Source: Bryobacterales bacterium (GTDB lineage Bacteria > Acidobacteriota > Terriglobia > Bryobacterales > Bryobacteraceae). Taken from it: a DNA stretch of 64,000 nt. The stretch is from contig JAFAQY010000106.1 of NCBI GenBank assembly GCA_019261985.1, forward strand, positions 22,214 through 86,213, read 5' to 3'. The notes under the pieces were generated by a model. It made no database searches, had not been told where the DNA came from, and worked only from the letters and a program-made list of their open reading frames with translations. This document shows, in pieces, positions 26,305 to 43,162 of this stretch. The position numbers and the translations under genes were made by a program. Within the stretch, counting starts at the first letter, position 1; each line of letters opens with the position of its first letter.

Positions 26305-29300
26305 TCAAAAGCTCAGCCGCCCTGTAACCTGGATCGAGCGGGGGCCCCCGTTTTCCTGCGATTGAACGTTGTTGAGGCTGGAGAATCCCGCTGTACCGAT
26401 ACTGAGATTCGAAGGGACTGCGTAATTGGGGTGGTTAATCGCGTTGGAGGCTGCTGCTCCAATCTGAATCTTCATGCGCTCCTTAACCTGAAATGACTTG
26501 AACAACGAAAGCGAAACGGCCTGTGTTCCGGGCCCGACGACGGCGCCGACGGGCGAATCGCCCGGACGGCCAATGTTGTTCGCCGGCTTTACGAATGCGG
26601 CAGGATTAATCCAGCCGCCAATGCCCTGGTTGGCGGGATAGAGAGGAATGCCGGAAACGATATCGGCGCGTCCCGCTCCGGAGGTGTTCACCGAGTTGTT
26701 GCCGGAAGGATCGGCTCCGGGTGCGATCACGGTCAAGAATGGCCCGGTTTGAAATAGCAACACACCGGAAAGTTCCCAACCCCCAATAAGCGCATCCATG
26801 AAACCGTTCGCGTTGCCGAACAGCATTCGGTTGTGGCCGAAAGGCATTTCATAAAGAAACGTCGTGAGAAAGCGATTCCTGTGAGTGAAAGAGACGTTAC
26901 CGTAATCGAGATTGAGGTTGTAAATATCGGTTACGGTTCCTCCGGCTTGGGTTGCGAATGCCGTGGGGTTGTAGCCTTGTCCATTCGAAAGATTCTTGGC
27001 AAAGGTATAGCTGCTGGCGAATTGCAGGCCGTGCGACATCCGCTTATTGGCCGCGACGGTAAAGGCGTTGTAGTTGCTGCGGGCTCCCGTGCTTTCCTGC
27101 GCAATGTATGCCCACAACGGATAGGCCGAGCCTGCGGCGGCTTTAGCAAAGCCAATCGTATTCGGAGCAACCTGCGCCAGGTTTTGGGTATATCCGATAT
27201 CGGAGCCGTGATTTCCGTCGTAAGTCAGCCGAAGACCGGTGTTAAAGCCCAGCGCTCGCTCAATTGTTAAATTCCACTGCTGCACATACGGGTCGTGATA
27301 ATGGACATCCGCTGAGAGCTGAAAACTCTGCGTGCCTGGTTGCGACAAATTTGCCGGGAAGGGATTCGCCAGCGTTAGCGCCGGAGTCCCGCCTACGATC
27401 GTATTCGTGTAGCTGCCGACGCTGCTTGATTGTACGGCCCATCCGGCGCTCGTGAGGGTTCCCAACATGGCTTCGATAAATCTGCCATATCCGCCGCGAA
27501 TGACTGTTTTGTCATTCCTGAATGGCCGCCAGGCGAAACCTATGCGCGGACCAAAGCTGGTTTTATCTGAATAATGAAGGGTATTGGGTAGACCCGCCTG
27601 GCCGGCGCTCAGGATCGGAGTTGGCGCGATCGATCCGGCAAATACAGAGTCCACTGGCGCGTGGTTAGATACCGCCACTGCTCCGTGCACCGTTACACCG
27701 TTAACGATCGAATAGGAGTCCGGAAGAAATACGGCCATGTTGTTCCAGGCATCGGTAAACGGAGGATGGTACTCCCAGCGCATGCCGTAATTGACGGTGA
27801 GGAACGGACTCACTTTCCAATCGTCTTGGGCAAACACCGCGTAATGGACGGCGCTCCCGTTGGAGTCCGGCGCATCGACGATGCCGACGCCGGTGCGGTC
27901 GGGAATCCCCAGCAGGAAAGCCTGGTACGGATTGAGACCCGTTACGGAGCCGTTAAAAGTGTACTGGCCCGCGCGGTTGCCCGCGAATACATTGCTGAAA
28001 TACGCGGAGAGCCGCCGAATGTCGCCTCCAAATTTGTACGAATGGGAGCCCTTGGTCCAGGTGATATTGTCGATCAATTGCTTGGTTTGAGAACGCGATA
28101 CAGAACTGGCGGTGGAACTGGTTGACTGAAAACCAGTGATAGTGAAGGTGGGGGTAGCGCTGCCCACGGGCGGATCGGGCAAGGGGACGCCAATCGCAGA
28201 GGTTATAGCCGTTGCGTTGATACCGGTACTGGTGATGACACGGGTAGCCGTAATGCCCACCCGCAATTCGTTCACGACCGTGGGCGAGATCACCCAATTG
28301 TGCGCGCCCGTGAAAGCATAATCCATTTCCGGCTGATGCGTACCGCCCGCGAGAATCGTCCCTGTGGAGGATGGTGGATTTGTAATGTCCTTGTACTTAT
28401 ACGTTCCGCGGACGAATAAGGTCTGCTTGGGCGTGATCACCTGGTCGATCCGCGCGTCAGCCTGATTGCTGCTGATCGGCGTGGGAAAATTCACTGCGTA
28501 GTTGTTTGCGATAGCGTTCGCCGGTCCCGTGTTCGGAAGAGGAAACAAATAGTTGAGCGCCGCCAATGAAACCGGCGAAATTTGGCTCAGGGGGATCTGG
28601 CCGAGCTTATAAACCGACAGGTCTCCACTGCGCAACGCCAGCGATGGGACACTTTGGACGATGAACTGCTGGCGCGGCAACTGCAGCCCTTCGTAACTCA
28701 TGAAGAAGAACGTTTTGTCCTTTCCGTGATAGAGACGCGGGAGCACCACCGGTCCACCGAGATACCCGCCATAGTTATTCATATGAATCTGCGAAACTGT
28801 CGCGCTGAAAGGATTGCGGGCGTTCATATCGGTATTTTGAAGATTCTCGTAAACGCCGCCGTGCAGCGAATTCGTTCCGCTTTTGGAAATAGTGGTGATA
28901 TCGCTGACGCCGCCGAACTCAGCGGCATTGTTAATCTGACTAACGCGGATTTCTTCGATAGTTCCGAAGGACGGGAACAATTCAGCGATCGGCGCTTCGC
29001 TTCGCACGCTCATTGTGCTGATGCCGTCAATGGTGATGGAGAGCTGGCTTGGTTTGGTTCCGGCCACCGAAAGAGCACCCGCGCCGTCCGTCTGCACTCC
29101 GGATTGCGTGGTCAGCGTTGAGATCGCGCTAGTCGAGCCAAGCGCGCGCGAACCGATCGCGACCGGAAGATCAACCAGCTCGCGTCCGCTCTTCGTCTCC
29201 GCGATGTTCGAAACTTCCGTCGTGATCACCGCAACATTGGTCGAAGTCACATCGACGGTCTGCACCTGTCCCGCGACTACCAGAGCGCCATCCGCGCGAA

Positions 29301-29616
29301 GAGTCTCGCGCGCGAGCAGCGACAAATTCTTCAGCATAAGGGGTTGAAAACCCGGCGCCTCCAGCACGATCTCATACATTCCCGGCTCGAGATTCACAAT
29401 CGAATAGCTACCTTCTTTGTCCGTCACTACGGACCGTTTCACGCCCGTGCCGGTGTTGGTGACGGTAACGATGCAATCGGCGATCACGGCCCCGGATGGA
29501 TCGCGCACAGAGCCGACGAACGATCCGAAGGTTGATTGCGCCGCCGCAAAAGATACGCAAAGCAAAAGAGTAATAAGGCCGGTGATTACCTGGCGGGAAT
29601 TCTTAGATCTATACAC
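26305..29616 (-). CDS. TonB-dependent receptor with carboxypeptidase-regulatory-like domain (3 of 3)
   Basis: The ORF track starts at a TTG at 29631. The GTG at 29616 is preceded by GGAGGAG 6-8 nt upstream. Sequence shows a signal peptide, FGSFVGSVRDPSGAVIADCIVTVTNTGTG and a C-terminal TGRLSF. Confidence 0.85.
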   Translation of the reverse strand: MYRSKNSRQVITGLITLLLCVSFAAAQSTFGSFVGSVRDPSGAVIADCIVTVTNTGTGVKRSVVTDKEGSYSIVNLEPGMYEIVLEAPGFQPLMLKNLSLLARETLRADGALVVAGQVQTVDVTSTNVAVITTEVSNIAETKSGRELVDLPVAIGSRALGSTSAISTLTTQSGVQTDGAGALSVAGTKPSQLSITIDGISTMSVRSEAPIAELFPSFGTIEEIRVSQINNAAEFGGVSDITTISKSGTNSLHGGVYENLQNTDMNARNPFSATVSQIHMNNYGGYLGGPVVLPRLYHGKDKTFFFMSYEGLQLPRQQFIVQSVPSLALRSGDLSVYKLGQIPLSQISPVSLAALNYLFPLPNTGPANAIANNYAVNFPTPISSNQADARIDQVITPKQTLFVRGTYKYKDITNPPSSTGTILAGGTHQPEMDYAFTGAHNWVISPTVVNELRVGITATRVITSTGINATAITSAIGVPLPDPPVGSATPTFTITGFQSTSSTASSVSRSQTKQLIDNITWTKGSHSYKFGGDIRRLSAYFSNVFAGNRAGQYTFNGSVTGLNPYQAFLLGIPDRTGVGIVDAPDSNGSAVHYAVFAQDDWKVSPFLTVNYGMRWEYHPPFTDAWNNMAVFLPDSYSIVNGVTVHGAVAVSNHAPVDSVFAGSIAPTPILSAGQAGLPNTLHYSDKTSFGPRIGFAWRPFRNDKTVIRGGYGRFIEAMLGTLTSAGWAVQSSSVGSYTNTIVGGTPALTLANPFPANLSQPGTQSFQLSADVHYHDPYVQQWNLTIERALGFNTGLRLTYDGNHGSDIGYTQNLAQVAPNTIGFAKAAAGSAYPLWAYIAQESTGARSNYNAFTVAANKRMSHGLQFASSYTFAKNLSNGQGYNPTAFATQAGGTVTDIYNLNLDYGNVSFTHRNRFLTTFLYEMPFGHNRMLFGNANGFMDALIGGWELSGVLLFQTGPFLTVIAPGADPSGNNSVNTSGAGRADIVSGIPLYPANQGIGGWINPAAFVKPANNIGRPGDSPVGAVVGPGTQAVSLSLFKSFQVKERMKIQIGAAASNAINHPNYAVPSNLSIGTAGFSSLNNVQSQENGGPRSIQVTGRLSF

Positions 29617-30048
29617 GTTACGCTCCTCCAAAGAAGATTTGTTTCCTTCGTGGGTAGCGCGAACGCTGCGCGACGGATACGGTTCGCTAAAAACTGGAAA
29701 AAATCTGTCCCGGCCGGAGGGACATCATTTGGGAGTGACTCAACTCGGTCACCGTTACGTTTTCTCGCATGTGGAGAACGTAAGCTGAATAGTCATTGAT
29801 TCTAACATCCACGGCAAAGAACTTCAATGGCGAACAAATCACTAGATTGAATCATCGCGATAAAAAAGAATTATTGGCGGCACCCAACTTTGTTGGAAAC
29901 AAAAAATGTTTAAAATCCGCGCTGTTCGATTTATACTTGCATGAAGACCCGCGTCGGTCCCGCCTAAGCAGGCTGCTGTCCGCACGTTCCGGCTAAGAGA
30001 ACAACCCCTTCTCTGAGAAATTCTCAATTCCAAATTCGAGGTGAGCCG

Positions 30049-31473
30049 GTGATCCGTTGGATCGTAGCAGCGGGAGTTGCGCTGTGTATCGCAGCCGTAG
30101 GTCAGCCTGGCGGTTTGCCATTCACGATCGAGGCGGTTGAGAACGTGAGTGCCCATTTCCCCGGTGCGCCGAAGCTGCAATCGTTTGCCTGGGCACAGTG
30201 GGATGGCAAGTGGATTTTTATCGGGGGCAGAACCACGGGATACCACGGCGTCGGGGCCGCGGACGCGGATTTTCCCCGCGCCGGCAGCAACGACAGGATC
30301 TGGGTGATCGATCCTTCCTTAGCGAAGACTTACAGCTTCCCGCTGGCGAGTCTGCCCAGCGCCTTGACAGCTGTTAAAGACCAATGGCTATCCAGCAATC
30401 TTCTGTTTTTTCAGGACAAAAGCACGTTATATCTGGCGGGCGGCTACGGAGCGAACTCGAATGGAAAGTTAGTCACGTATCCGGTTCTATCGCGGGTCGA
30501 TCTGCAAGCTCTGGTGAAGGGTGTTGTCGCCGGAACGGATACGTTCTCCGACACGATCCGATGGACCACAAGTACTCTGGTGCAGTCGGCCGGAGGCGAG
30601 TTGCTGAAGCTCGATGACGGTTCGTTTTATCTTGCCGGAGGACACGTGTTCACAGGAAGTTATCGGGATTTCGAAGCGGGGAATGAACAGGAGACGAAAA
30701 CTGCGTCGCAGAAGTACCTGGGGGAGATCCGGAGGCTGAAGTTAACCGATGCGGGTGGGCGCCCGTACGTTGACTTGATCGAGCGCTACGCCGATCCGGA
30801 ATTCGCCCGACGCGATTTAAACGCAGGCCTGATTATCCTTCCCGACGGACACTCTCTCGGCGCGGCAATTTATGGCGGCGTGTTCACGCGAGAGCAGCTC
30901 AATTTTTCGAAGCCCATTTATTGGGACGCCTTTACAAGCCCTCACGTAGATGAGTATGAGCAGAAGATGAGTGCCTATTCCTGTGCCACCGTCCAGATGT
31001 TCGATCCGGATTCGAAAACCATGTACACGACGTTTTTCGGGGGTATCAGCCGGTGGACCTGGGACGAGAAGAAAAGTGTGTTTGTCCAAGCACCATTGGT
31101 GGGCGATAAGACCAAAACCGTTTACCTCGACGGCATGCCGTGGATCGACCAGATTTCTACACTTGCTCGCCATGGCGGCCATAGCGAGGAGTTCGTTCAG
31201 TCTTCTCGTCTGGGCGGATTCGTTGGAGCGAACGCGGCGTTTCTGCCGGTGGCTGGATTGAAAAGAATACGGGCGGATGCGCCGGTTTACGATCTCTCCG
31301 CGCTGCGCGGAAAGCGAACTCTGATTGGTTATATTTACGGCGGCATCCGTGCGTTTCCGCGTGAATTTCCTTATCTCGAAAGCTCGCCTTCCTACAGCGC
31401 AGGGAACGTGCCTACCAAACCGAACGATCTGATTCTGGCCGTGTACATCACGGTCCCGGCATCGCGGCGCTAA
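30049..31473 (+). CDS. Secreted Kelch-like beta-propeller protein (hypothetical)
   Basis: 474-aa ORF with a GTG start and a signal-like N-terminus. Recurring Kelch-like motifs: WIFIGGRTTGYHG, LYLAGGYGAN, FYLAGGHVF, AAIYGGVF, TTFFGGIS, GYIYGGI. Confidence 0.45.
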   Translation: MIRWIVAAGVALCIAAVGQPGGLPFTIEAVENVSAHFPGAPKLQSFAWAQWDGKWIFIGGRTTGYHGVGAADADFPRAGSNDRIWVIDPSLAKTYSFPLASLPSALTAVKDQWLSSNLLFFQDKSTLYLAGGYGANSNGKLVTYPVLSRVDLQALVKGVVAGTDTFSDTIRWTTSTLVQSAGGELLKLDDGSFYLAGGHVFTGSYRDFEAGNEQETKTASQKYLGEIRRLKLTDAGGRPYVDLIERYADPEFARRDLNAGLIILPDGHSLGAAIYGGVFTREQLNFSKPIYWDAFTSPHVDEYEQKMSAYSCATVQMFDPDSKTMYTTFFGGISRWTWDEKKSVFVQAPLVGDKTKTVYLDGMPWIDQISTLARHGGHSEEFVQSSRLGGFVGANAAFLPVAGLKRIRADAPVYDLSALRGKRTLIGYIYGGIRAFPREFPYLESSPSYSAGNVPTKPNDLILAVYITVPASRR

Positions 31474-32189
31474 ACCCCGGCTTCGGAGGCGAGCGCCGCG
31501 CCCAAGAGGTCCGCGTTAACAGACTCGCGGGCACGCAGCACGAACCCCGTCATATTCGCCACCGCGAAGCTGATCCCGTGCAGATTACGCTCGCGCGGCA
31601 TCCCCGGAAGCGAGCGCGGGTAGCCCGAAGCGTAATAACAGCCGTTTTTCAGGTAATAGCGGTCACGCGGGCAATCCCAATCGAGACCCACGCCAATGAC
31701 TCCGGGAAGACTTCCAGGAAGGCACAATTGCCCATTGGCTTCATAGGCCGCAACAATTATCGTTCCCCGCGCGGCAGCGTTTTCTATTAAAGCTCGGAAC
31801 CGGCTCTGGTATTCGAGCTTCAAGGTTCCGAGGCTCAGATTGACGACATCTACGCCTTTTGCCAAGCTCCACTCGATTGCCGCAATAAGAGCCGGCGTTG
31901 AGGTGCGCAGCGAGTTGTGAAACAGTTTTACGGCAAAATAGTCCGCGTCAGGAGCCTTCTCCTGGATTGCGGCCATTACGGCGGTGCCGTGGCCCAGCAT
32001 GTCCACAAACGAATCTTCCTCTAGCTCGCCGGGTCCGAACACCGAAACGCCGCCCGACACGCCCCGGATATGTGGATGGCGAGCGTTCACGCCGCTGTCG
32101 ATGACCGCGGCACGCAGACCACGGCCCGATGCTCCTGGAAAGGGCAGAGCCTGGCTGGCCTCAGGACTGGAGTATGGGGTCGAGGACAT
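31470..32189 (-). CDS. qhpE: Small subtilisin-like serine protease (gamma-leader peptidase type)
   Basis: 239-aa ORF. S8-type catalytic triad contexts AVIDSGVNARHPH (Asp), LGHGTAVMAAI (His) and HGISFAVANMTG (Ser). There is no signal peptide, and the gene overlaps the 3' end of the ABC exporter gene by 29 nt. Confidence 0.7.
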   Translation of the reverse strand: MSSTPYSSPEASQALPFPGASGRGLRAAVIDSGVNARHPHIRGVSGGVSVFGPGELEEDSFVDMLGHGTAVMAAIQEKAPDADYFAVKLFHNSLRTSTPALIAAIEWSLAKGVDVVNLSLGTLKLEYQSRFRALIENAAARGTIIVAAYEANGQLCLPGSLPGVIGVGLDWDCPRDRYYLKNGCYYASGYPRSLPGMPRERNLHGISFAVANMTGFVLRARESVNADLLGAALASEAGV

Positions 32190-33879
32190 GCGTAATCTTC
32201 ATTTGGGTGATTTGGGCGCGCGCAGATTCGATCTCGATCACGCAATCGGCGCTGGCTGCCAATGCCGGGCGGTGGGTGATGACGATCAGTGTCGAACCGG
32301 GCAATGCATCGCGCAGATTTGAAGCCACCAGTCTTTCGGTTTCGGAATCAAGGGCCGATGTGGGCTCGTCAAGAATGAGCACGCGCGGACGGCGCAGCAA
32401 GGCGCGCGCTAGGGCGATCCGTTGCCTTTCGCCGGCGGATAGGGCTAGACCCCGCTCCCCGGTCTTGGTTCCATAGCCTTCGGGAAGCCGTTCGATCAAC
32501 TCGCCCAGACCGGCGGCGCGAGCGGCTTGGTCGATCCGATCATCGCCGGCATCGGGAAGAGCATAGGAGATGTTCTCGCGGATGCTCGTATTGAACAAAT
32601 ACGGCGACTGGTCCACTAGCATCACTTGGCCGCGCAAATCGTCGAGCGAGACCGCTCGTAGATCGTGGCCATCCAGCAGGATTCGCCCACGATCCGGATC
32701 CAGATAGCGGACCAGAAGGTCGGCAAGAGTAGATTTGCCGGCGCCGCTTGGTCCTAAGATGGCGCAGAACGCTCCGGCCGGAATCTCGAGAGAAACATCT
32801 TCAAGAACGGGCTTGCGGTCATATTTGATGGAAACGTTTTCTAGACGAAAATGACCTTGAACCAACGCAAGCCGAGTTGGCGGCTCAGCTTCACGAACCT
32901 CGGCGGGCGTATCGAAAAGCTCGAAAACCCGGCCTAGCGAAACCCGGGCCGAGGCCAGTCCGGACGTCATGCTCATCAGGTTCTGGATGGGGGACAACAG
33001 GCGCATATGGTAGGCCATAAAGGCCACCATCGTGCCGACGGACATGGCGCCATTGATAATCAGCCACCCTCCATAAAGAAACACGGCGGCGGTAGCAGCC
33101 GTTAGAATCGCGCCCGGCAGCGCACCAGTCATAAACGATGCGATTTGCGCGTCGAGCATGGTTCGTACAAAGGCGTCGTTGCGTTCCTTAAAACGCGCCG
33201 TCTCGTGCTTATTGGCGCGGAGCGAAACAACAACCCGCATGCCCAGAATCGTCTCCACAAACAAACTGCCCAGATCCGCGCTGCGTTCCCGCAGGGCCTT
33301 CGTGAAGGCAGTGAGCTTACGCTGATACCGGCGGAAGGTGTAAAGGCAAGCAGGAATAAAAACGACACTTACAAAGAATAGGCGCCAGTTCAGCAACAGC
33401 ATCATGAAAATGCTGCCGAACAGAAAGACAACGTTCGAAAGGACGGAAAGCAGCGTATCGGCCGATACGCGCTGTATCTCGCCGACATCGTTGTTCAGGC
33501 GGGACATCAGATCGCCAAGCCTGAAGCCGGCGTAAAACCGGGGCGATAGCGTCTGCAAATGACGGAACAGAGCCAGCCGCATATCGAAGAGCATCGCGGC
33601 CGAGACCTTTACATAGCGGTAGCTCGAAAGAATATTGAGGAGAAAACTCAACACGCTCGCGCCGAACATTAAACCCGCCACGCGAACCAGAGCGTGCATG
33701 TCGCGCTTCAAAAGCGCGCTGTCGATAAGGAGCTTGGAGATGTACGGCTGAACCAATCCCAGGCACGTGGCAGCGAGACTGATCGCGAGGATCAGGACCA
33801 GCCGCCCCGTGTAGGGATGAAGAAAAACCCAAAGTCTGCGCCAATGGCGCCATTGGGCTACGCCTGCGCCGGCTTCCAT
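32161..33879 (-). CDS. qhpF: ABC exporter with fused permease and ATPase (gamma-subunit exporter type)
   Basis: 572-aa ORF. Six-helix TMD, then Walker A GPSGAGKST, signature LSAGERQR and Walker B LILDEPTS. Lies directly downstream of qhpB of locus 2. Confidence 0.75.
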   Translation of the reverse strand: MEAGAGVAQWRHWRRLWVFLHPYTGRLVLILAISLAATCLGLVQPYISKLLIDSALLKRDMHALVRVAGLMFGASVLSFLLNILSSYRYVKVSAAMLFDMRLALFRHLQTLSPRFYAGFRLGDLMSRLNNDVGEIQRVSADTLLSVLSNVVFLFGSIFMMLLLNWRLFFVSVVFIPACLYTFRRYQRKLTAFTKALRERSADLGSLFVETILGMRVVVSLRANKHETARFKERNDAFVRTMLDAQIASFMTGALPGAILTAATAAVFLYGGWLIINGAMSVGTMVAFMAYHMRLLSPIQNLMSMTSGLASARVSLGRVFELFDTPAEVREAEPPTRLALVQGHFRLENVSIKYDRKPVLEDVSLEIPAGAFCAILGPSGAGKSTLADLLVRYLDPDRGRILLDGHDLRAVSLDDLRGQVMLVDQSPYLFNTSIRENISYALPDAGDDRIDQAARAAGLGELIERLPEGYGTKTGERGLALSAGERQRIALARALLRRPRVLILDEPTSALDSETERLVASNLRDALPGSTLIVITHRPALAASADCVIEIESARAQITQMKITHVLDPILQS

Positions 33880-33991
33880 TTAGCTTGTCCCGAGAACTGT
33901 ATCCAAACTCGGGCGGACGCCCAGGCCCGCGCCGGAATCCACATAGGCCCGCGGTCCATGGGGACCACCCCACAGGGTATGAGATCGAACA

Positions 33992-35110
33992 TCAGCTACC
34001 TGATAACGTTATCAGATTTGTGGTGGTGTCTTTGTTGAGGTACAGCAGCTTGGTGGATTTCAACGTTTTCGTATCGTAGAACTCGATCGTCGAACCGCCG
34101 CCATACACCAGCAGCTTCGATCCGTCGCTGCTGATCGAAAAACGGAAGTTTACGCGAGCGGGAAGAAACTCTCTCTTGATCACCTTATGCGCGGCAACGT
34201 CCCATACCCACCACTCCGTAACGCGATTCGCGCCCGTGTTGTACACCATTAGCGAATAGCCGAGCTTACGGTCGGGTGAAAGAGCAAAACCCACCATCGG
34301 GAAAGCCGGCCCCAGCGGTGTGTATTCCACCTTCTTGGTTGCCAAATCGATTGTGGCCATGCCGATCGTCTGTTTGTGAACGGCTGCATCCACCGAGGTG
34401 AACACGTTCGTCACAGTCCCGGCAGCGTCGTTTGGATCGTCGTTCGCGGCCAGCCGGTAGGGAGATGCGCCCGGGTACTCCGGCTTCGCCAGTTCGATAC
34501 GGTCGACTTCATGAAGATCGCTCAAATCGAAGACGACGACGTCGTCATCGAATACATACAGTAGCTTGCCGTCGGGCGAAATCTTGTAAGTCGCGCCGAA
34601 ACCAAAGCCATCGTCGTACCCTTTGGGGAAGGGCATTGACTGAACGATCTTTTTATCCTGCAGGTCGATTTTCACGAATATCGGAGGATCGTTCCGATAT
34701 TGGTCGATCTCTTTAACGGTTACCTTCATCGTGGTGTACACGTACCGTCCTGCTGGATCGACCGCGAGGCCGGAAAAGTTGCGGCCGCCCGCCCGCAACA
34801 TGCGCGGAATGCTCTTTCCATCCGAGAGCGGAAAACTGCTGACAATCTGGCGCGAAGCGAGATCGACCGTCTCGAAATCGAGTTGCGTGGTGACCAGGTG
34901 AAGCTTGGTTTTATCCGCGGATAAGACTGTGGTGCGGGGAATGCCGCCAAGCGGGATTTCACCAACGATATCGCCCGTGCTCTCGTTAATGATGAGAAGT
35001 TTCTTATCGAGCGTTCCGACATACATCAAGCCCTTTAAGCTCGCTGGCGTTTGCCCCAAGCACAAGGCCGAGGCCAAAACGACGGTTCCAAACAATCGCG
35101 TGACTCCCAT
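33992..35110 (-). CDS. qhpB: QHNDH beta subunit-like beta-propeller (locus 2)
   Basis: 372-aa ORF with a signal peptide. Alignable along its length with 20205-21299 (for example LHLVTTQLDFETVDLASRQIV against the locus 1 equivalent). Starts 15 nt after the qhpC stop. Confidence 0.7.
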   Translation of the reverse strand: MGVTRLFGTVVLASALCLGQTPASLKGLMYVGTLDKKLLIINESTGDIVGEIPLGGIPRTTVLSADKTKLHLVTTQLDFETVDLASRQIVSSFPLSDGKSIPRMLRAGGRNFSGLAVDPAGRYVYTTMKVTVKEIDQYRNDPPIFVKIDLQDKKIVQSMPFPKGYDDGFGFGATYKISPDGKLLYVFDDDVVVFDLSDLHEVDRIELAKPEYPGASPYRLAANDDPNDAAGTVTNVFTSVDAAVHKQTIGMATIDLATKKVEYTPLGPAFPMVGFALSPDRKLGYSLMVYNTGANRVTEWWVWDVAAHKVIKREFLPARVNFRFSISSDGSKLLVYGGGSTIEFYDTKTLKSTKLLYLNKDTTTNLITLSGS

Positions 35111-35125
35111 CTGTGTTGCCTCTCG

Positions 35126-35473
35126 TTACGGATAAACGACATCCACGTTGCGCCAATCGTTGACGGCTGCGCTGCACTTGTCCGTCCACGAAGGATTGTT
35201 GCTGACATGATCCGGAACTTGCGCGGGCCAGGCACAGCCTAGATAGCAGTCAAAGAGATCCCGCTCCACGGGCTGGCACAGGCCTGCCGTTCCGCCCGAA
35301 ACATCCACTTCCCAGCCGGGGTTAAACGAGAGCGTGCATCCCAGCGGGTAGTAAACGCGCCCGGATTTGGAAGCGTCGGACTCTTGTTGCAGCGCCTGCA
35401 CATCGCCCAATTCGGCGAAGCGTACCCGCTCCATGTTGCGAGCCTTCTGATTAAACGGTTGCAGCGATTTCAT
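35126..35473 (-). CDS. qhpC: QHNDH gamma subunit precursor, locus 2
   Basis: The ORF track extends to 35581. The start is placed at the ATG at 35473, with an AAGGA sequence 6 nt upstream and 11 nt after the qhpD stop. The core GCTLSFNPGWEVDVSGGTAGLCQPVERDLFDCYLGCAWPAQVPD...DWRNVDVVYP has all canonical crosslink residues. Confidence 0.8.
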   Translation of the reverse strand: MKSLQPFNQKARNMERVRFAELGDVQALQQESDASKSGRVYYPLGCTLSFNPGWEVDVSGGTAGLCQPVERDLFDCYLGCAWPAQVPDHVSNNPSWTDKCSAAVNDWRNVDVVYP

Positions 35474-35484
35474 GAGTGGTCCTT

Positions 35485-36927
35485 TCAGTCGTTGAAGCGC
35501 TCCAAAAACTTTGGATTGCCCATGCCGATCTCCGCATAAATGTGGAGACAAAGATCGATCCATCCGCGCACGCGATCGCACTGCTTCAATAGCGACGCGG
35601 AGGTATTGCCGTGATTAATGAACGATTCGTGATAGCAGCCTCCCGCGCATACGGGACGCACCCAGCAGGTGTGACAGTCCGGCCGCGCCCCGATATGATG
35701 CTGTTCCAGAAACTCCCGCCGGGCTTCGTGATCGATGCCGCCTTTCACCACGTTGCCCATCTGCGCGACGGGCGCGTCAACAAACCGGTGGCACGCACCG
35801 ATGTCTCCCGATGTGCCAACGCCAAGCATTCCGAGTCCGGCTCCACAGGTATAGGCCTTGCTGACTCCCGAATGAAGCTCCTTAAGAGTGTCGGTGACGT
35901 TAGTGAAGCGGTGGTGGCGACCCTTGAGAGCGTGGTCCCGATATTCGTACGCCAGATCCGCGAATTCGCCGAGGATATCGTCCATGGTTTCGCCGCCGAT
36001 GTGATAGAGGCGGTCGGGACTGGCAGTCGCCGGCGAAAATCCTACACCCGCGAAATCGAACTCCTGGGTCAGATGATCGTAGATTCGCCGCACATGGCGA
36101 ACACCGCTGCTAAGAGTCACTCTGGCGCCGATGGAATTTGTTTTGTGCCGCGCCAGCAGCATTTTTATCTTGGGAGCGATGACATCGTAGCTGCCGCGGC
36201 CATTGTGAAAAACGCGCATGCGATCGTGCAATTCTTTATCGCCGTCGATGCTGACGGTTACCCCGAAACGATGCTCAGCAAGAAAATCCGCGATCTCTTC
36301 CGTCAGAAGCGTCGCGTTGGTAGTTAGACTGTAATCGACCGCTTTGCCCTCCGACGCCGCCTTCGCATCCGTATAAGCCACTGTGGACTGCATCAGCGGG
36401 AAATTCAAGAGAGATTCACCGCCGAAAAAAGTCACGTGCAGCTTGGGGCGTCCGGCCGACTCGCGAAACAAAGTGTCTATCGCGGCCTGCGCGACCGGAT
36501 CGGTCATGTACTTCGGCTTGTCTTTTGTAATGGCGATTTTGTCCGGGCTGTACTCGTAGCAGTATCCGCAGCTCAGGTTGCACTGATTGGTGAGGTTCAG
36601 GACCACGCGCTGCAGAGGAAAATCGCCAGCCGGTATTGACGGAAATTTTGGACGTCCATCGCCGGAAGTCAGAACGTCGTAATACGTCATCTCTTCAAGG
36701 ATGGCTTCGATTTCGTCTGGAGCGTAACGCCGTTCAGTAAACCAAGAGACCAGCTCCCCACGATCGAGCGGACCAAGGGGAAACGCGTCGAAAATCTCTT
36801 TCGAAAGCCCGTCTAAACGGAACACAGCCCCGCTGGGGACCAGATAGAGAAAGTCAGCATCCGCAACTCTGAACCGGTGATGTTCAGACTGCCGGTAAGC
36901 CGTCGCGGCAGGTTCGCAAGCAGTCAT
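35485..36927 (-). CDS. qhpD: Radical SAM/SPASM peptide-crosslinking maturase, locus 2
   Basis: 480-aa ORF. CNLSCGYCYE motif and SPASM cysteines CGAGLG...CHRF...CHTCWVRPVCAGGCYHE. Its ATG overlaps the qhpA TGA (ATGA). Confidence 0.85.
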   Translation of the reverse strand: MTACEPAATAYRQSEHHRFRVADADFLYLVPSGAVFRLDGLSKEIFDAFPLGPLDRGELVSWFTERRYAPDEIEAILEEMTYYDVLTSGDGRPKFPSIPAGDFPLQRVVLNLTNQCNLSCGYCYEYSPDKIAITKDKPKYMTDPVAQAAIDTLFRESAGRPKLHVTFFGGESLLNFPLMQSTVAYTDAKAASEGKAVDYSLTTNATLLTEEIADFLAEHRFGVTVSIDGDKELHDRMRVFHNGRGSYDVIAPKIKMLLARHKTNSIGARVTLSSGVRHVRRIYDHLTQEFDFAGVGFSPATASPDRLYHIGGETMDDILGEFADLAYEYRDHALKGRHHRFTNVTDTLKELHSGVSKAYTCGAGLGMLGVGTSGDIGACHRFVDAPVAQMGNVVKGGIDHEARREFLEQHHIGARPDCHTCWVRPVCAGGCYHESFINHGNTSASLLKQCDRVRGWIDLCLHIYAEIGMGNPKFLERFND

Positions 36928-38747
36928 TGCTGAGCGACCTCGGGCTGGTCGTAAAGCGTGTAATTCGGGACAGTCACTACCAGGTACGATTTGGCCTTGT
37001 GGGTGACTCCTGCGGCATCTTTATAGGTGGCAACAGCCCAGACGTCGCCGTAGTTGTCTACGCCGAAGTTACTGTTGACCTTTTTGCGTTCGGGGTTGGG
37101 ACCTTCAAAGCTGGGCGTGAACAAGCCCGAATCGTCGATCTTCCCCACGAACAGGATGTCATCGTCGTCAGGGGTTGAAAAGAACTCCTCCATCGACCAT
37201 TGGGCGCTTACGGGTCCTAAATCCAGATCGTCGGCAGTGTGAGGCTTGCCATCGGGACCGGCGGCGTATGCTCGCGCTTCATATTGCGCAAACTCTTTGG
37301 GCCACTTAATGCCACCGAGCCGCGAAATCTGCGCGTTCGGGCTCACCTCAATGTAGGCGATCTTGTCGTACACGGCCAGGGCTTTAATCTTGCCGGCGCG
37401 GCCGATGGTCAGATCCCGCATGCCTACCGGAGCTTTTGCGGCAATGTCAACTTCGATGGTCGCCAATGTAGGGGTTGCGTTGACGACTTTCGTGACCGTA
37501 ATGCCGGGGCCGAATATGAAATCGGACGGTTGCAGCGATGACGGAAGATTGCCGCCAAATATCTTTACCTGACCGTGCGAAGGAGACTGAAGGGCCGATA
37601 TATCCGTACCCAGGATCGCCGGTTCTGCGCTAGCACGCACCAGATGCACATCCATGCCAAGCTCGCCGAAACCGCTCCAGAACCAGCGGCCGTCCATGCT
37701 GTTGCCATCGCGGGAAACCATCATGGCCTCGCGCCATTCAGCTGGAATACCACTGGCCGCGGTGACCGGCGCCGACGCCGCCGTAACCGGAAGGGGACTC
37801 ATGGCCGCAGCCCCGGAACGGCCGCGCCAGCTATAGCCGGTGTACACGATGCTCTTGCCGGTGAGCTTCAGGCTAGCTCCGGAACTCGCGTAAGTCAGCT
37901 GTGTTGTCGTCGAAAAAAGATCGTCGGATGCTCCGGGCGTAATCACAACCTGGCCGTAGATGCGTCCGCGACCCGGCTGATAGGCGGACACAAGCCACGT
38001 TCCCGCGAGTTTAGGCGCTCGCATAGCGGCGCGCCAAGCCGTCCATTCAGGAGTAATCAGCGGTTGGCTGGTTGCAAGATAATCGACAGCGATAGCGCCA
38101 GGCGCTTTTGCATTTACGGCGGAAGCTGCCGTGGCTCGAGGCGCTTCACGATTAATACCACCGGTATCGTTCGCTGTCAGGTGTACCGGCGCTTCCTCGA
38201 TCGGTACAGCCTTGGTGCGCTGCGGGCGGAACACGTTCTCCGCGCTCGGGAACATGCCGATGTGCATCGCCAGTAACTTTTGATAATCCTCGCGCGTTCG
38301 GCGCTGAGCTAAAACGCGGCCGATGTTGTGACAGTTGTTGCACGTTTTCTGAAGGGCCGGATTCGAAACATGATCGTCCTGATAGCCTTGGGTCCGGTGC
38401 TCCACCTCCCAGAACCCTGCCGCCATTTCTTCCGGCGCCAAGCCGTTGTTGTTGCTAAGGTAGCGGACGATGTCCCGCACTTCTTGCGGTGTGGCCGAAA
38501 GCCCGTTCAGCCGGATCATGCGTTTAATCGCCTGTTCCCAGACCTCGGGAGTCGTACGGATGTAAGAGATTCGGGTCATCAACCCGGCGGGGTCGCGCCG
38601 GTGGCAACCACCGCATTTGCTGATCGTCAACTGATCGTTTATAGGAATTCCCGCCACGTCAGGCTGCGAGCCGCTCTGCGCGTGAACGATGCTAAGTGCC
38701 ATGAAAAGCAGGCCTGCAACACCGACAAATCGTGCATGACTGGACAT
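36924..38747 (-). CDS. qhpA: QHNDH alpha subunit-like di-heme cytochrome c protein, locus 2
   Basis: 607-aa ORF with a signal peptide. CGGCH and CNNCH motifs, RISYIRTTPEVWEQAIKRM. The C-terminal SYLVVTVPNYTLYDQPEV matches the locus 1 C-terminus. Confidence 0.8.
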   Translation of the reverse strand: MSSHARFVGVAGLLFMALSIVHAQSGSQPDVAGIPINDQLTISKCGGCHRRDPAGLMTRISYIRTTPEVWEQAIKRMIRLNGLSATPQEVRDIVRYLSNNNGLAPEEMAAGFWEVEHRTQGYQDDHVSNPALQKTCNNCHNIGRVLAQRRTREDYQKLLAMHIGMFPSAENVFRPQRTKAVPIEEAPVHLTANDTGGINREAPRATAASAVNAKAPGAIAVDYLATSQPLITPEWTAWRAAMRAPKLAGTWLVSAYQPGRGRIYGQVVITPGASDDLFSTTTQLTYASSGASLKLTGKSIVYTGYSWRGRSGAAAMSPLPVTAASAPVTAASGIPAEWREAMMVSRDGNSMDGRWFWSGFGELGMDVHLVRASAEPAILGTDISALQSPSHGQVKIFGGNLPSSLQPSDFIFGPGITVTKVVNATPTLATIEVDIAAKAPVGMRDLTIGRAGKIKALAVYDKIAYIEVSPNAQISRLGGIKWPKEFAQYEARAYAAGPDGKPHTADDLDLGPVSAQWSMEEFFSTPDDDDILFVGKIDDSGLFTPSFEGPNPERKKVNSNFGVDNYGDVWAVATYKDAAGVTHKAKSYLVVTVPNYTLYDQPEVAQQ

Positions 38748-39191: not shown

Positions 39192-40526
39192 ATGAGTTTG
39201 AAACTGCATTCCCCGCATCTTGGCGTACCGGTCATCGTCCTGCTTGTAGTTTCGGCCGCCGCTCAAATCAATCCGGGCGCCATTGGGCGCAAGGCGCTTG
39301 ACGATCTGCTTGCGCAGCGCTTTTCCGAGTTGCGGGAACTGTTTGACACCGCTATGAAGGAGAACTTGACTCCCGATGTTCTCCGCGGCAGAGTCAGCTC
39401 GGAACTGGCGACTTTTGGTAAACCGGAAACGATCGGCGAACCCGTCGTGGGCCATGAAGGGCAGCTCACGGTGGTTACTCTCCCGGTAACGTTTTCGAAG
39501 ACCAAAGTGAATGTTCAGTTTCATATTCACGAATCCGGCGAACTGGCGGCTATCCACTTCCGGCCCGCAGATTCAGCGCCTCCGGTGGCGTGGCAGCGGC
39601 CTGCCTACAGCAACCCGAATGCATTCCAAGAGCGAGCGATCACCATCGGCAACGAGCCCTGGAAGCTGGGTGGAACATTCACCGTACCGAAAGGAAAGGG
39701 GCCATTCCCGGCTGTGGTTCTGGTGCATGGTCCAGGTCCGAACGACCGGGATGAATCGATGCGGGCCAACAAGGTCTTCGCGGACATCGCGGAAGGGCTC
39801 TCATCGCGCGGTATTGCCGTATTGAGATACGACAAACGCACGCTGGTCTACGGACGGCAAATGAGCGAGCGCGAGTTTACGTTGCGCGAGGAAATCATCG
39901 AAGATGCGTTAGCGGCTGCTGCCTTCCTGCGCGCGCAGCCCGAAATAGACCGCGGGAAAATTTATCTGCTCGGCCACAGCCTGGGTGGATACGCAGCTCC
40001 GCGGATCGCCCGCGAGGATGGCAAGTTCGCTGGAGTAATTTTTCTCGCTGCTAATGCGCGCCCGATTCAGGAACTGGTTCTGGAGCAAACGCGATATTTG
40101 GCCGCGGCCGGCGCGCTGTCTCCCGATGAGGCCCAGAAACGGCTGGACGCTTTGAAGATAGAAACGGAAAAACTGAACGCGCTAGAACCGGGGAAAGCGA
40201 ATCCGCCCGTAGTATTGGGGCTACCCTCAGCCTGGCTCCTTGATGTGAAGTCTTACGATCCCGTGGCCGAAGCGGCGCGTCTGTCAATTCCGCTTTTATT
40301 TCTCCAAGGCGGCCGCGATTTTCAGGTCGGCATGAAAGATTTCGAGCAGTGGAAATCGAGGCTTGGGGCGCAACCGAACGCAACCTTCCACTCTTATCCC
40401 GACTTGAATCACCTATTTATTTCGGGAAAGGCCAGGAGCGTACCGGCCGAGTACCTCATTCCCGGCAACGTGTCGGCGGATGTGATCGCCGCGATTGCGG
40501 ATTGGATCGCGGCCGGTGGAAACTAG
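39192..40526 (+). CDS. Secreted alpha/beta-fold serine hydrolase
   Basis: 444-aa ORF with a signal peptide and an N-terminal helical domain. Nucleophile elbow GHSLGG, with downstream GGRDFQV and LNHLF (acid and His contexts). Confidence 0.75.
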   Translation: MSLKLHSPHLGVPVIVLLVVSAAAQINPGAIGRKALDDLLAQRFSELRELFDTAMKENLTPDVLRGRVSSELATFGKPETIGEPVVGHEGQLTVVTLPVTFSKTKVNVQFHIHESGELAAIHFRPADSAPPVAWQRPAYSNPNAFQERAITIGNEPWKLGGTFTVPKGKGPFPAVVLVHGPGPNDRDESMRANKVFADIAEGLSSRGIAVLRYDKRTLVYGRQMSEREFTLREEIIEDALAAAAFLRAQPEIDRGKIYLLGHSLGGYAAPRIAREDGKFAGVIFLAANARPIQELVLEQTRYLAAAGALSPDEAQKRLDALKIETEKLNALEPGKANPPVVLGLPSAWLLDVKSYDPVAEAARLSIPLLFLQGGRDFQVGMKDFEQWKSRLGAQPNATFHSYPDLNHLFISGKARSVPAEYLIPGNVSADVIAAIADWIAAGGN

Positions 40527-40534
40527 CCGGGCGT

Positions 40535-41536
40535 TTATGCGACGGCCTCAAGCTGAAAACCGTTCAGTCGATAGCGAAACGGGGGAAATCGCGCCAGTCT
40601 TTCGGCGCACCAAGCCAAGCCACGTTCAAGGGCGTGCAATTCCGCGGTCCACCACGGCCCATCGCCACCGCTCCGATAAAAACCAATACAGTTCGCGAGG
40701 TGCCGGTGAAAGCCGGCGGTCAAGCGCGATTCGTAATGCGCAAACACATGATCCGCTGACTCCCCGTTGGATATGGCACGGACGGCAGCAGCGGCTAGAA
40801 CGGCTTCGCGCACGGCATGCGCGGTACCGTCTCCACAGATTGGATCGAAAGCGAGCGCGGCCGTGCCGCAGGCCAGCCATCGCCTGTCCTCAGCGCAGCC
40901 GCAAAGCGGGATCATTATTCTCGGGTGGGCAGGGAATTCGCCATTGGGCGCATGAACGTATCGGATTTGCTTTGCGATCAGCCGGCTGCCTTCGAGCGGA
41001 GCGCCGCAGACACCGCCAACGCAAAGTAGCGACCCTGTGCTATCTTCGCTTCCGATCAAGAATAGCCAACCGTCCTCAGCCGATTCGACCCAGCAGCCAG
41101 GTTCGCCGGCGGTGTTCAATTCAACCGAATAAGCGCGGGCCGTTCGCGTGCCGAAACGTTGCTCCGCCGCTCCGGGCGGAGATGGACGTGAAGAAAAGAT
41201 CTCCCACTCCGATGGGCGCGGCACGGCGGCGATTGGGATGGCCGGCCGGATATGGTCCAACAGTATTTTCTCAGAGACAACCACAGCGGAATGCGGTAAA
41301 ACGACGGGTTCGGCTTGCGAACCCCAGAGGACAGTCCTGTGTTGAATGCGCGGCAGCTCTCGAAAGAGGTCCCGATGTCCGAAAACATCCGCCATCAATT
41401 TAATCGCGGCCTCGCTGAGCATCACGGCCGGCACGCGGGGACGGCTGGAAGCTTCGAGCTCCACGGGAACCCCGGCTCGATGTAAAATATGCGCGCAGCA
41501 ATATGCGGCTACTCCGTCGCCGCGAACCAGGACCAT
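40535..41536 (-). CDS. FAD-dependent monooxygenase-like flavoprotein, candidate QhpG/LodB-type tryptophylquinone biogenesis enzyme
   Basis: 333-aa ORF. The N-terminal Rossmann beta-alpha-beta is MVLVRGDGVAAYCCAHILHRAGVPVELE (a GxGxxA variant). The second FAD motif is ACGTAALAFDPICGDGTAHAVREA (GD...DP type). The assignment to cofactor biogenesis rests on context. Confidence 0.45.
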   Translation of the reverse strand: MVLVRGDGVAAYCCAHILHRAGVPVELEASSRPRVPAVMLSEAAIKLMADVFGHRDLFRELPRIQHRTVLWGSQAEPVVLPHSAVVVSEKILLDHIRPAIPIAAVPRPSEWEIFSSRPSPPGAAEQRFGTRTARAYSVELNTAGEPGCWVESAEDGWLFLIGSEDSTGSLLCVGGVCGAPLEGSRLIAKQIRYVHAPNGEFPAHPRIMIPLCGCAEDRRWLACGTAALAFDPICGDGTAHAVREAVLAAAAVRAISNGESADHVFAHYESRLTAGFHRHLANCIGFYRSGGDGPWWTAELHALERGLAWCAERLARFPPFRYRLNGFQLEAVA

Positions 41537-43162
41537 GTGATCAGGATAACGAAGGCACTACTCCCGATAATCCTGCTGCTGACTCGTGTAGCTGGTCAGT
41601 CGCCCGCGCCAGAGGAGGGCATTCCCGTTACCGATCCGTTGGTCATCGCGAAATGTGGCCCTTGCCACGCAAAAGACGACCGCGGAAATCTGGAGCGAAT
41701 TTCGTGGATGCGGACCACGCCCGAAGGCTGGCAGGAGGCATTACGAAAAACAGTGCTGGATGGACGTCTTACGATCGCGCCGGCCGAAGCGCGTGCCGTT
41801 GTGAAATCGCTAAGCGGAAGTCACGGATTGGCGCCTGAGGAAGCGCAGCCTGTGGCGTATTACGCGGAGCGCCGAATTCAGGAGGAAGGCATCGATGACG
41901 ACAATCCACTGACGTCGTGTACGAAATGCCACCCCGCGGCTCGACCGCTTTCGTGGAGGCGGTCGCCGAAGGAGTGGGAGCAATTCGTCGAAACGCATGC
42001 GAAGGAATACAAGTTCGATTTGAACCCGCGGACGATTACGGCTCTCAGTAAAACCACTTCGCTTCATACGCCCGAGTGGACGGGATGGAGCGCCCGCACG
42101 GCTCGCCCGGACCTGAGTGGCCGCTGGTTAGTCACGGCCCATTTGCATGGTGGCGGAAAATACACGGGTGAGCTGCAAGTGGAGCGCGGTAGCGCCCCGG
42201 ACGAGTTCAGCACGCGCATAAAACTGAAATCCACAAAGAATGGCTTCGAAGTCGTCCGCACGGGCCAAACTGTAATATTCGGAGGTTATCAATGGCGTGG
42301 CCGGTCTCGAGGAGTTAATCCTCCTAACAGCCCTGAGGATGCTTCCAATGAGGCGCGTGAGTCGCTGTGGTTCTCGCCTGATTTAACCCGCGCCGAAGGC
42401 CGTTGGTTCTGGGGGCAATACCAGGAATTCGGGTTTAACGTGGAACTACGGCGACCCTCGACTGGAGCGACCCTGCTCGCTATCGACAGCCAATCGCTCA
42501 AGATAGGCTCGAAATCTAATGCGATTCGGCTTATCGGCGACAATTTCGCCGCTCAGGTGAGTCCTGCCGATCTAAGCTTTGGCCCCGGCGTGACGGTACG
42601 GCGAATCGTTTCCGGCAACGCAACGGAAATCGTGGTTGAAGTGGATGTCGCCGCAAATGCGACGCCACGCAAGAACGATGTCTCGCTGCACGGGTCGGTT
42701 CTGAAAGGCAGGCTTGCGATCTACGATCGCGTCGATTACCTGAAGGTCACCCCGGAATCATCGCTTGCCGCGTTCGGCAATGCCAATTATCAACGGGGCT
42801 TTGGAATTTTCGAAGCGATCGGATTTCAGCGCGGCCCGGATGGCAAGGCTCACACGGCCGACGATCTCGACCTAGGGCCGATAGACGCGACTTGGTCGAT
42901 GGAGGTCTTTTATGCCGTCGATTCGAGTGGCAACGACAAAATCGGCAAAGTCAGCACAGCCGGTCTCTTCACTCCCGCCGCGGACAATCCTGGAGTGAAT
43001 TATGACATTTGGGTCATCGCGACGGCGGTGAAAGAATTTAGCAAAGACGCGCGTCCTTTGGTGGGTAAAGGTTATGTCGTGGTGACGGTTCCCGAGTACA
43101 CGTTTAATGGACGACGCTATATACGCGACCTGGACCGCTGGATCGAGGAGGGCACCTGGTAA
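41537..43162 (+). CDS. Third, orphan QHNDH alpha subunit-like di-heme cytochrome c protein
   Basis: The ORF track starts at the ATG at 41489. The GTG at 41537 gives a cleaner signal peptide (VIRITKALLPIILLLTRVAGQ). CGPCH and CTKCH motifs, RISWMRTTPEGWQEALRK, and alignment along its length with the two qhpA products. No gamma, beta or radical SAM gene is adjacent. Confidence 0.65.
   Translation: MIRITKALLPIILLLTRVAGQSPAPEEGIPVTDPLVIAKCGPCHAKDDRGNLERISWMRTTPEGWQEALRKTVLDGRLTIAPAEARAVVKSLSGSHGLAPEEAQPVAYYAERRIQEEGIDDDNPLTSCTKCHPAARPLSWRRSPKEWEQFVETHAKEYKFDLNPRTITALSKTTSLHTPEWTGWSARTARPDLSGRWLVTAHLHGGGKYTGELQVERGSAPDEFSTRIKLKSTKNGFEVVRTGQTVIFGGYQWRGRSRGVNPPNSPEDASNEARESLWFSPDLTRAEGRWFWGQYQEFGFNVELRRPSTGATLLAIDSQSLKIGSKSNAIRLIGDNFAAQVSPADLSFGPGVTVRRIVSGNATEIVVEVDVAANATPRKNDVSLHGSVLKGRLAIYDRVDYLKVTPESSLAAFGNANYQRGFGIFEAIGFQRGPDGKAHTADDLDLGPIDATWSMEVFYAVDSSGNDKIGKVSTAGLFTPAADNPGVNYDIWVIATAVKEFSKDARPLVGKGYVVVTVPEYTFNGRRYIRDLDRWIEEGTW

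Follow-up and report, generated by a model that had tools for sequence, protein, structure and literature searches.

A probable quinohemoprotein amine dehydrogenase operon with its biogenesis genes inside a larger qhp supercluster of a Bryobacterales bacterium

The window analysed in this work, to which all coordinates refer, is a stretch of 64,000 nt from a metagenome-assembled genome (MAG) of a Bryobacterales bacterium (Acidobacteriota). Between positions 31470 and 38747, a check of open reading frames (ORFs) yielded six co-directional ORFs on the minus strand in the order A-D-C-B-F-E, designated here after the qhp genes of quinohemoprotein amine dehydrogenase (QHNDH; Table 1). They are tightly packed. 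The genes qhpA2 and qhpD2 are coupled by an ATGA overlap (CAGCAATGACTG), the gaps measure 11 nt between D and C, 15 nt between C and B and 112 nt between B and F, and F and E overlap by 29 nt. The ATG start codon of qhpC2 lies seven bases past an AAGGA ribosome-binding site. A preliminary description, which had been made from the sequence alone, listed these genes as encoding a di-haem alpha subunit with CGGCH and CNNCH motifs, a radical SAM/SPASM enzyme coupled to it by the ATGA overlap, a 115-aa gamma precursor, a beta-propeller, an ABC exporter and a small cytoplasmic subtilisin-like protease, and interpreted the whole as a QHNDH-type locus with built-in maturation genes. All six ORFs were found where they had been placed, and each of the gene descriptions held up in the analyses reported below. 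The proteins of the window are identical to GenBank entries of Bryobacterales MAGs, among them GCA_019242875.1 and the series MBV94006xx. In that annotation, A, D, C and an orphan alpha gene located at higher positions in the window are labelled as QHNDH proteins (MBV9400640.1, which corresponds to A2, is named QHNDH subunit alpha), F is labelled as an ABC transporter and E as an S8 peptidase, and the beta subunit and a G homologue are hypothetical proteins.

The analysis covered gene content, family membership, modification residues and synteny, the last in about 80 acidobacterial genomes. Family calls were made by profile scans against NCBIfam, using its equivalog cut-offs, and Pfam. QhpA2 passed the equivalog model TIGR03908 (447.9 bits, E = 4e-134, cut-off 274.35) and carries all four Pfam domains of the QHNDH alpha subunit (PF09098, PF14930, PF09099 and PF09100). 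Its cysteines are limited to exactly two CxxCH motifs, CGGCH at residue 45 and CNNCH at residue 136. It matches 1jmx_A with an E of 1.7e-55 and is about 110 residues longer than the characterised alpha subunits, the extra length being two loop insertions at residues ~175-221 and ~312-344. The preliminary description had called this size unusual. The protein is indeed larger, but acidobacterial alpha subunits generally have 544-630 aa, and because loop insertions are common to the lineage, the length is not out of the ordinary. QhpD2 passed TIGR03906, the model for the QHNDH maturation protein (520.2 bits, E = 4e-156, cut-off 453), and has a CX3CX2C motif (CNLSCGYC) at residue 116 as well as eight C-terminal cysteines. 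QhpC2 passed NF037958, the model for QHNDH gamma (114.7 bits, E = 2e-33, cut-off 50), and also matches PF08992.

The core of gamma2 could be aligned without gaps to the gamma chains 1jmx_G from Pseudomonas putida and 1jju_C from Paracoccus denitrificans. In this alignment, Cys7, Glu16, Cys27, Asp33, Cys37, Cys41, Trp43 and Asp49 (mature gamma numbering) are all kept. These are the members of the thioether pairs Cys7-Glu16, Cys27-Asp33 and Cys41-Asp49 and of the pair Cys37/Trp43, from which the cofactor cysteine tryptophylquinone (CTQ) is made. Judging from the alignment, every residue for the three thioether links and for CTQ is thus conserved in gamma2. In the profile searches with hidden Markov models (HMMs) that the preliminary description had proposed, A, D and C pass their models, and the joint failure of the alpha, beta and gamma products against QHNDH models, which it had named as a refutation, did not occur, for which reason we regard the region as a QHNDH locus. 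The HMM results, the gamma residues, the profile of the beta family and the QhpG matches agree, and the region is very probably an operon for a periplasmic alpha-beta-gamma QHNDH with its biogenesis genes, which is embedded in a larger Bryobacterales qhp supercluster.

Several observations weigh against this interpretation. QhpB2 and QhpB1, the product of a second cassette, fail the QhpB equivalog model TIGR03907 with 44.6 and 50.7 bits (cut-off 223.2), the QhpG homologue reaches 63.4 bits against NF049967 (cut-off 240), and the subtilase narrowly misses the QhpE model NF049966 (162.2 bits, E = 1e-47, cut-off 165). No match to QhpR, AraC or HTH_18 was found among the scanned ORFs of at least 200 aa, smaller ORFs not all having been scanned, which agrees with the absence of an AraC-type regulator noted in the preliminary description. 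Finally, the receptor, esterase and Kelch genes that surround the cassettes are, like a putative monohaem gene, not part of the proteobacterial qhpABCDEFGR set. QhpR is a regulatory accessory and not a defining component of QHNDH. With beta, QhpG and QhpE below their cut-offs and F showing generic matches only, the orthology of these four proteins rests on profile, fold and synteny, and the evidence for each of them is therefore given in the following.

A search of solved structures with the single QhpB2 sequence returned only an E of 0.47 to 1jmx_B. A profile built from 28 acidobacterial homologues, B1 included, matches both 1jmx_B (E = 2.2e-15, profile positions 15-351 on chain positions 8-341) and 1jju_B (E = 8.7e-15) over the full length. 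The structure 1l0q scored higher, but was rejected as a match, as it is a generic YVTN propeller that was matched locally and repeatedly. The subtilase is 2.8 bits short of the QhpE cut-off and about 100 bits above the second-ranking family, which reaches 65 bits. It matches PF00082 and contains the motifs DSGV, HGT and GISFA with the Asp/His/Ser triad. The exporter matches PF00664 and PF00005, and its NCBIfam matches are only to generic MsbA/HlyB-type models, all below cut-off. Its architecture and its kept position between B and E are consistent with QhpF.

The flavoprotein gene had been described as detached from the operon at 40.5 kb. It is found there as a QhpG homologue in the minus-strand ORF 40535-41536; the adjacent ORF at 39192-40526, which was also considered, was discarded and encodes an EstD-like esterase. 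The best PDB sequence match of the homologue is QhpG, whose solved form has 432 aa. With a profile of 20 sequences the match to 7ctq_A rises to an E of 7.3e-10 and covers the flavin motif GDAA..DP..G; a GxGxxA motif is present as well. Its AlphaFold2 model (pLDDT 89.8) has 7ctq_A as the top Foldseek match (E = 4.7e-15, TMq 0.69). Matches to GoxB (38 bits) and LodB (30 bits) are weak. The compact G family comprises at least 1,674 clusters at 90% identity, all of them about 330 aa long, with no Pfam domain and in most cases annotated as hypothetical. From sequence and predicted fold, we read the gene as a putative compact QhpG orthologue that lies below the curated cut-off.

A synteny survey in Acidobacteriota, which the preliminary description had also proposed, was carried out by scanning species-representative genomes with an alignment of QhpD1 and QhpD2. 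There were 339 loci, and all synteny counts given here refer to the best 80 of these, which are all from Acidobacteriota (Bryobacterales, Acidobacteriaceae and Solibacteraceae). An uninterrupted A-D-C-B run is present in 73 of the 80 loci; likewise, C and B are adjacent in 73, with qhpB following qhpC. Sixty-five loci have at least 3 kb of sequence downstream of B and are thus informative for the order of F and E. The arrangement B-F-E was found in 34 of them and B-E-F in none, so that F-E can be regarded as the rule in this lineage. The preliminary description was therefore right about the F-E order, but not in calling it unusual: it is the acidobacterial norm, and variation in the order and strands of qhp genes has been published (Oozeki et al., PMC7876137). 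In 38 of the 80 loci, the qhp cassette has a G homologue next to it. In metagenomic papers, qhpA or QHNDH has already been named as one of the acidobacterial functions.

The closest known system is the QHNDH of Paracoccus denitrificans and Pseudomonas putida (qhpADCBEFGR; PDB 1JJU, 1PBY, 1JMX and 1JMZ; QhpG 7CTQ). The locus shares with it a di-haem alpha subunit of four domains, a propeller beta subunit and a gamma subunit of about 76 residues with the four cysteines that are modified there, Glu16, Asp33, Asp49 and Trp43. Also in common are a dedicated radical SAM/SPASM QhpD, whose gene is joined to qhpA by an ATGA overlap, an ABC half-transporter, a small cytoplasmic subtilase and a flavoprotein of QhpG-like fold. 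In contrast to the proteobacterial order ...B-E-F-G-R, the window has A-D-C-B-F-E; its QhpG homologue is shorter by about 100 residues, with its gene outside the operon, the alpha subunit is longer by the insertions mentioned above, and beta has diverged too far to pass the equivalog model. The gamma leader has about 39 instead of 28 residues, the gamma subunit contains a fifth cysteine and lacks Trp42, and two cassettes and an orphan alpha gene are combined in one supercluster. Compared with the qhp loci of other acidobacterial MAGs (such as L002, L003/L081 and L085), which have the same gene order and the compact G, there is no substantial difference. The locus is a further member of a well-known system, and most of the features that had seemed odd are usual in this lineage. 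A more remote analogy exists to LodB and GoxB, the maturases of the CTQ oxidases LodA and GoxA, which are flavoproteins hydroxylating a peptidyl Trp, as is predicted for the G homologue. However, QhpG is the better match to the G homologue in both sequence and fold, and the window contains no LodA- or GoxA-type gene.

The steps of the maturation pathway are those described in PMC7876137, and we infer the biochemical steps and the substrate by homology and analogy with the Paracoccus and Pseudomonas system. In the cytoplasm, QhpD2 would bind the 115-aa QhpC2 precursor, and the compact QhpG homologue would dihydroxylate Trp82. The QhpE-like subtilase would then cut off the leader of about 39 residues, and the ABC half-transporter would export the knotted peptide. 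In the periplasm, the peptide would assemble with the propeller QhpB2 and with QhpA2, the di-haem subunit exported by the Sec route, and CTQ, the quinone of Cys76 and Trp82, would be completed. The mature enzyme is expected to oxidise a primary amine to the aldehyde and ammonia, with electrons passing from CTQ via the two haems to a periplasmic acceptor.

One feature of the gamma subunit has no counterpart in the two solved enzymes. QhpC2 contains an additional cysteine, Cys100 (35174-35176), which corresponds to Cys108 of gamma1 (21368-21370), and none of the 80 acidobacterial gamma sequences lacks this fifth cysteine. The assumption that it is specific for Acidobacteria had to be rejected, as it occurs in most gamma clusters at 50% identity, some of which have a proteobacterial-like CWW motif. 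When 1.84 billion representative proteins were searched exhaustively, no more than 128 gamma-like representatives were obtained; most of the intact ones have the fifth cysteine, and the Paracoccus/Pseudomonas type is without it. The cysteines of mature alpha2 are all haem-binding and mature beta2 has none, so that Cys100 has no disulfide partner inside the trimer. It sits six residues ahead of the invariant Asp106 of a DW motif (CxxxxxD), which equals the spacing of Cys27 and Asp33. It is possible that Cys100 forms a fourth thioether made by QhpD or serves as a functional thiol.

The qhp-related region extends from about 20.2 to 43.5 kb. This 23-kb supercluster consists of two A-D-C-B cassettes, one F/E/G set and the orphan alpha gene; accordingly, a tblastn search of the window against itself returned single copies of F, E and G, two copies each of B, C and D, and three of A. 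The second cassette, which the preliminary description had reported at 20.2-24.9 kb, could be verified with all four genes (A1, D1, C1 and B1). From the identities of their products (A 44%, D 47%, C 54%, B 32%), the paralogy of the two cassettes is old. The widespread form is type 1, and the type-2 cassette (A2-D2-C2-B2) was found only in Bryobacterales among the best 80 loci. The orphan alpha gene, which is absent from the preliminary description, is divergent from the G gene and encodes a protein with four Pfam alpha domains and the motifs CGPCH and CTKCH; in the window self-search, no D, C or B gene was found beside it. It is followed by a gene for a DUF6152 protein with a conserved NPH motif, whose predicted mature N-terminus is HHG. 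This pair is kept in six of the 80 loci and in L083 (it was seen in L002, L003/L081, L046, L056, L063 and L083).

The supercluster layout of the window is kept in L002 and L003/L081, with 62-87% protein identity (L002 and L003). In L041 and L056 the order is G-F-E-x375-TBDR-A1-D1-C1-B1-esterase, where TBDR is a TonB-dependent receptor, and the type-1 cassette is thus on the strand of F-E-G, about 5 kb downstream. The window resembles this arrangement, with a type-2 cassette and an esterase gene located between G and F. The L041/L056 arrangement supports, without proving, the use of one E/F(/G) set for two gamma precursors. At the level of the window, it is a fair inference that gamma1 from the second cassette relies on the same single E/F/G set for its maturation. 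The preliminary description had gone as far as to say that a single F/E pair apparently has to serve both gamma paralogues; the single pair is present in the window and recurs in L003/L081, but the sharing itself is supported rather than proven. QhpE has been reported to be a suicidal protease with a single turnover (PMC7876137), so that its use for two gamma precursors would have consequences for the stoichiometry.

Other explanations of the locus were considered. According to the first, the type-2 cassette, together with the Kelch-type protein x474, is a functionally diverged CTQ dehydrogenase for a substrate class unlike that of the type-1 or the classic n-butylamine/phenylethylamine enzymes, and the isozymes share one E/F/G set. 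The large distance between the paralogous cassettes and the occurrence of type 2 in Bryobacterales alone among the best 80 loci point in this direction, as do the lower scores of type 2 against all QHNDH models and the single F, E and G genes available in the window for both cassettes. In addition, the two types differ at residue 42 of the gamma subunit, which lies beside the CTQ Trp: type 2 has Ala or Gly there and type 1 Phe or Tyr, as against Trp in the solved enzymes. The gene for x474 adjoins qhpE in 7 of 8 type-2 loci, but is found in only 1 of 72 type-1 loci; it also adjoins qhpE in L083 and L085, in the latter directly after it. We thus consider x474 a candidate extra component of type-2 qhp loci. 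However, the catalytic and cross-link residues are identical in type 1 and type 2, and further copies of E, F and G could lie outside the window. Moreover, the Kelch protein is without a functional match: no Pfam, NCBIfam or PDB sequence match was obtained, and Foldseek returned only generic Kelch domains and YjhT, for which reason no function can be assigned to x474. On balance, a functionally diverged type-2 enzyme seems possible, but rather doubtful. An even more speculative and in our view improbable extension of this idea would be that two diverged CTQ dehydrogenases and the orphan alpha/DUF6152 pair share one QhpE/F/G line, with only QhpD being cognate to each gamma subunit, that the invariant fifth cysteine forms a fourth thioether or acts as a thiol, and that the type-2 enzyme, with a secreted Kelch protein dedicated to it and a TonB-dependent receptor nearby, has a substrate other than simple alkylamines.

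The occurrence of two cassettes within 18 kb with a single maturation set might also mean that one of them is a redundant, decaying duplicate without a function of its own. This is very improbable, as all eight ORFs are intact with their catalytic motifs kept, both types are conserved with 50-86% identity across many genomes, and the two-cassette layout recurs in L003/L081. Least credible of all, and rejected by us, is a ranthipeptide- or sactipeptide-like cluster for a ribosomally synthesised and post-translationally modified peptide (RiPP) that exports a free cross-linked peptide instead of making an enzyme subunit. The generic RiPP layout does combine a radical SAM/SPASM enzyme with a protease, an ABC exporter and a small precursor rich in Cys, and QhpD2 also scores against the models of PapB (266 bits) and the SCIFF maturase (216 bits). 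However, both scores are below the cut-offs (340 and 425), whereas QhpD2 passes the QhpD model. The precursor, moreover, is a gamma subunit of QHNDH with Trp43 and all partner residues conserved, and alpha and beta genes flank the gamma gene in 73 of 80 loci. The relationship of QhpD2 to the ranthipeptide maturase PapB and the SCIFF maturase ScfB can rather be seen as an analogy, in which the radical SAM core, the SPASM domain and presumably the Cys-to-carbon thioether chemistry are shared, but the predicted product is a quinone-bearing enzyme subunit and not a free peptide. A periplasmic QHNDH with its biogenesis genes thus remains the preferred interpretation of the locus. The coordinates of its genes and of the neighbouring genes are compiled in Table 1.

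Table 1. Genes of the qhp supercluster and adjoining genes, with positions in the 64,000-nt window.
Gene or product	Position	Strand	Properties
qhpB1	20205-21299	minus	TIGR03907 score below cut-off
qhpC1	21323-21694	minus	123 aa; NF037958 129.8 bits; same five Cys as QhpC2
qhpD1	21691-23154	minus	TIGR03906 627.9 bits; start codon uncertain
qhpA1	23127-24917	minus	596 aa; TIGR03908 510.4 bits
x375, secreted, weak squalene-cyclase-like C-terminus	25126-26253	minus	375 aa; CISCH at residue 66; weak PF13243 match
TonB-dependent-receptor-like outer-membrane barrel	26305-29631	minus	PF25183 680.8 bits and PF13620; upstream of cassette 1
x474, secreted six-bladed Kelch-type propeller	30049-31473	plus	474 aa; AlphaFold2 model pLDDT 86.5
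qhpE-like small subtilase	31470-32189	minus	239 aa; without signal peptide
qhpF-like ABC exporter	32161-33879	minus	572 aa; one transmembrane and one nucleotide-binding domain; without peptidase domain
qhpB2, divergent beta-propeller subunit	33992-35110	minus	372 aa; with signal peptide
qhpC2, gamma-subunit precursor	35126-35473	minus	115 aa; leader ~39 aa, core ~76 aa
qhpD2, radical SAM/SPASM thioether-forming maturase (predicted)	35485-36927	minus	480 aa
qhpA2, di-haem alpha precursor	36924-38747	minus	607 aa; Sec-type signal peptide, read by eye
EstD-like alpha/beta hydrolase with DUF3887	39192-40526	plus	NF041096 352 bits (cut-off 600); Pfam Hydrolase_4 and DUF3887
compact qhpG homologue (predicted flavoprotein Trp dihydroxylase)	40535-41536	minus	333 aa; upstream of qhpA2, esterase gene between
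orphan third QhpA-like di-haem protein	41489-43162	plus	557 aa; TIGR03908 388.2 bits (cut-off 274)
DUF6152 protein	43168-43536	plus	PF19649 72 bits; after orphan alpha

Some of the neighbouring genes recur at other qhp loci. The gene x375 lies between the TonB-dependent receptor gene and qhpA1 and neighbours qhp genes in 14 loci, and the CxxCH motif is kept in 14 of 14 homologues; x375 could be a haem protein linked to QHNDH. In 17 loci, a receptor gene precedes qhpA in the same orientation. Homologues of the esterase gene, which is divergent from qhpA2 in the window, follow a qhpB gene of the qhpB1 type in nine loci. Roles of these neighbours in substrate uptake or as electron acceptors are speculation. 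The receptor gene is also one of three large TonB-dependent-receptor-like genes with CarboxypepD_reg and OMP_b-brl_4 domains in the window, all of them on the minus strand (26305-29631, 2022-5231 and 10991-14269).

An Rfam scan of the whole window gave no family at the gathering threshold, and hence no known riboswitch or leader RNA. Promoter-like sites (3 versus 4.1 expected) and terminator-like sites (19 versus 12.0 expected, sd 4.2) were not above the expectation from shuffled sequences. A TTGACA-17-TAGATT site at 38973-38945 on the minus strand, about 200 nt upstream of qhpA2, is a candidate promoter only.

Outside the supercluster, a second quinoprotein-rich region of the window contains two propellers of the pyrroloquinoline quinone (PQQ)-type dehydrogenases (5391-7283 and 16649-18526, plus strand) among four xylose-isomerase-like TIM-barrel genes and an MFS transporter gene; one of the propellers also matches the 'acido-empty-quinoprotein' model, below cut-off. 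An arsenic-resistance-like group on the minus strand (44051-45856) encodes LMW-PTP/ArsC-like and aquaporin-like proteins and a SAM methyltransferase with a Cys-rich tail. Its aquaporin-like gene is read as two ORFs (44460-44825 and 44832-45182), possibly due to a frameshift. A MacB/FtsX-like permease gene (46045-47884, minus strand) also appears to be split into two overlapping ORFs (46748-47884 and 46045-46860) and may contain a frameshift or be a pseudogene; a PadR regulator gene adjoins it at 47894-48214. Finally, a flagellin-like ORF of 1,245 aa (55697-59434, minus strand) has Flagellin_N and Flagellin_C ends and a central part of about 1,000 residues without a family match.

QHNDH is a textbook enzyme whose catalytic subunit is made like a RiPP. 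To our knowledge, its biochemistry has to date been studied in two Proteobacteria only. The Acidobacteriota, which are dominant in soil, contain many qhp loci with a stereotyped A-D-C-B-F-E layout and a predicted compact QhpG that is unnamed in databases. Recognising these loci aids the annotation of the beta subunit, QhpG, QhpE and QhpF in Acidobacteriota as well as the reading of amine and nitrogen turnover in soil. The orphan alpha/DUF6152 pair and the putative compact QhpG are further points of modest interest. In addition, the window provides testable leads on the limits of QHNDH maturation, namely a possible shared maturation set for two gamma subunits, the fifth cysteine, and the recurrent Kelch, monohaem and TonB-receptor neighbours; these leads overturn nothing that is known about the system.

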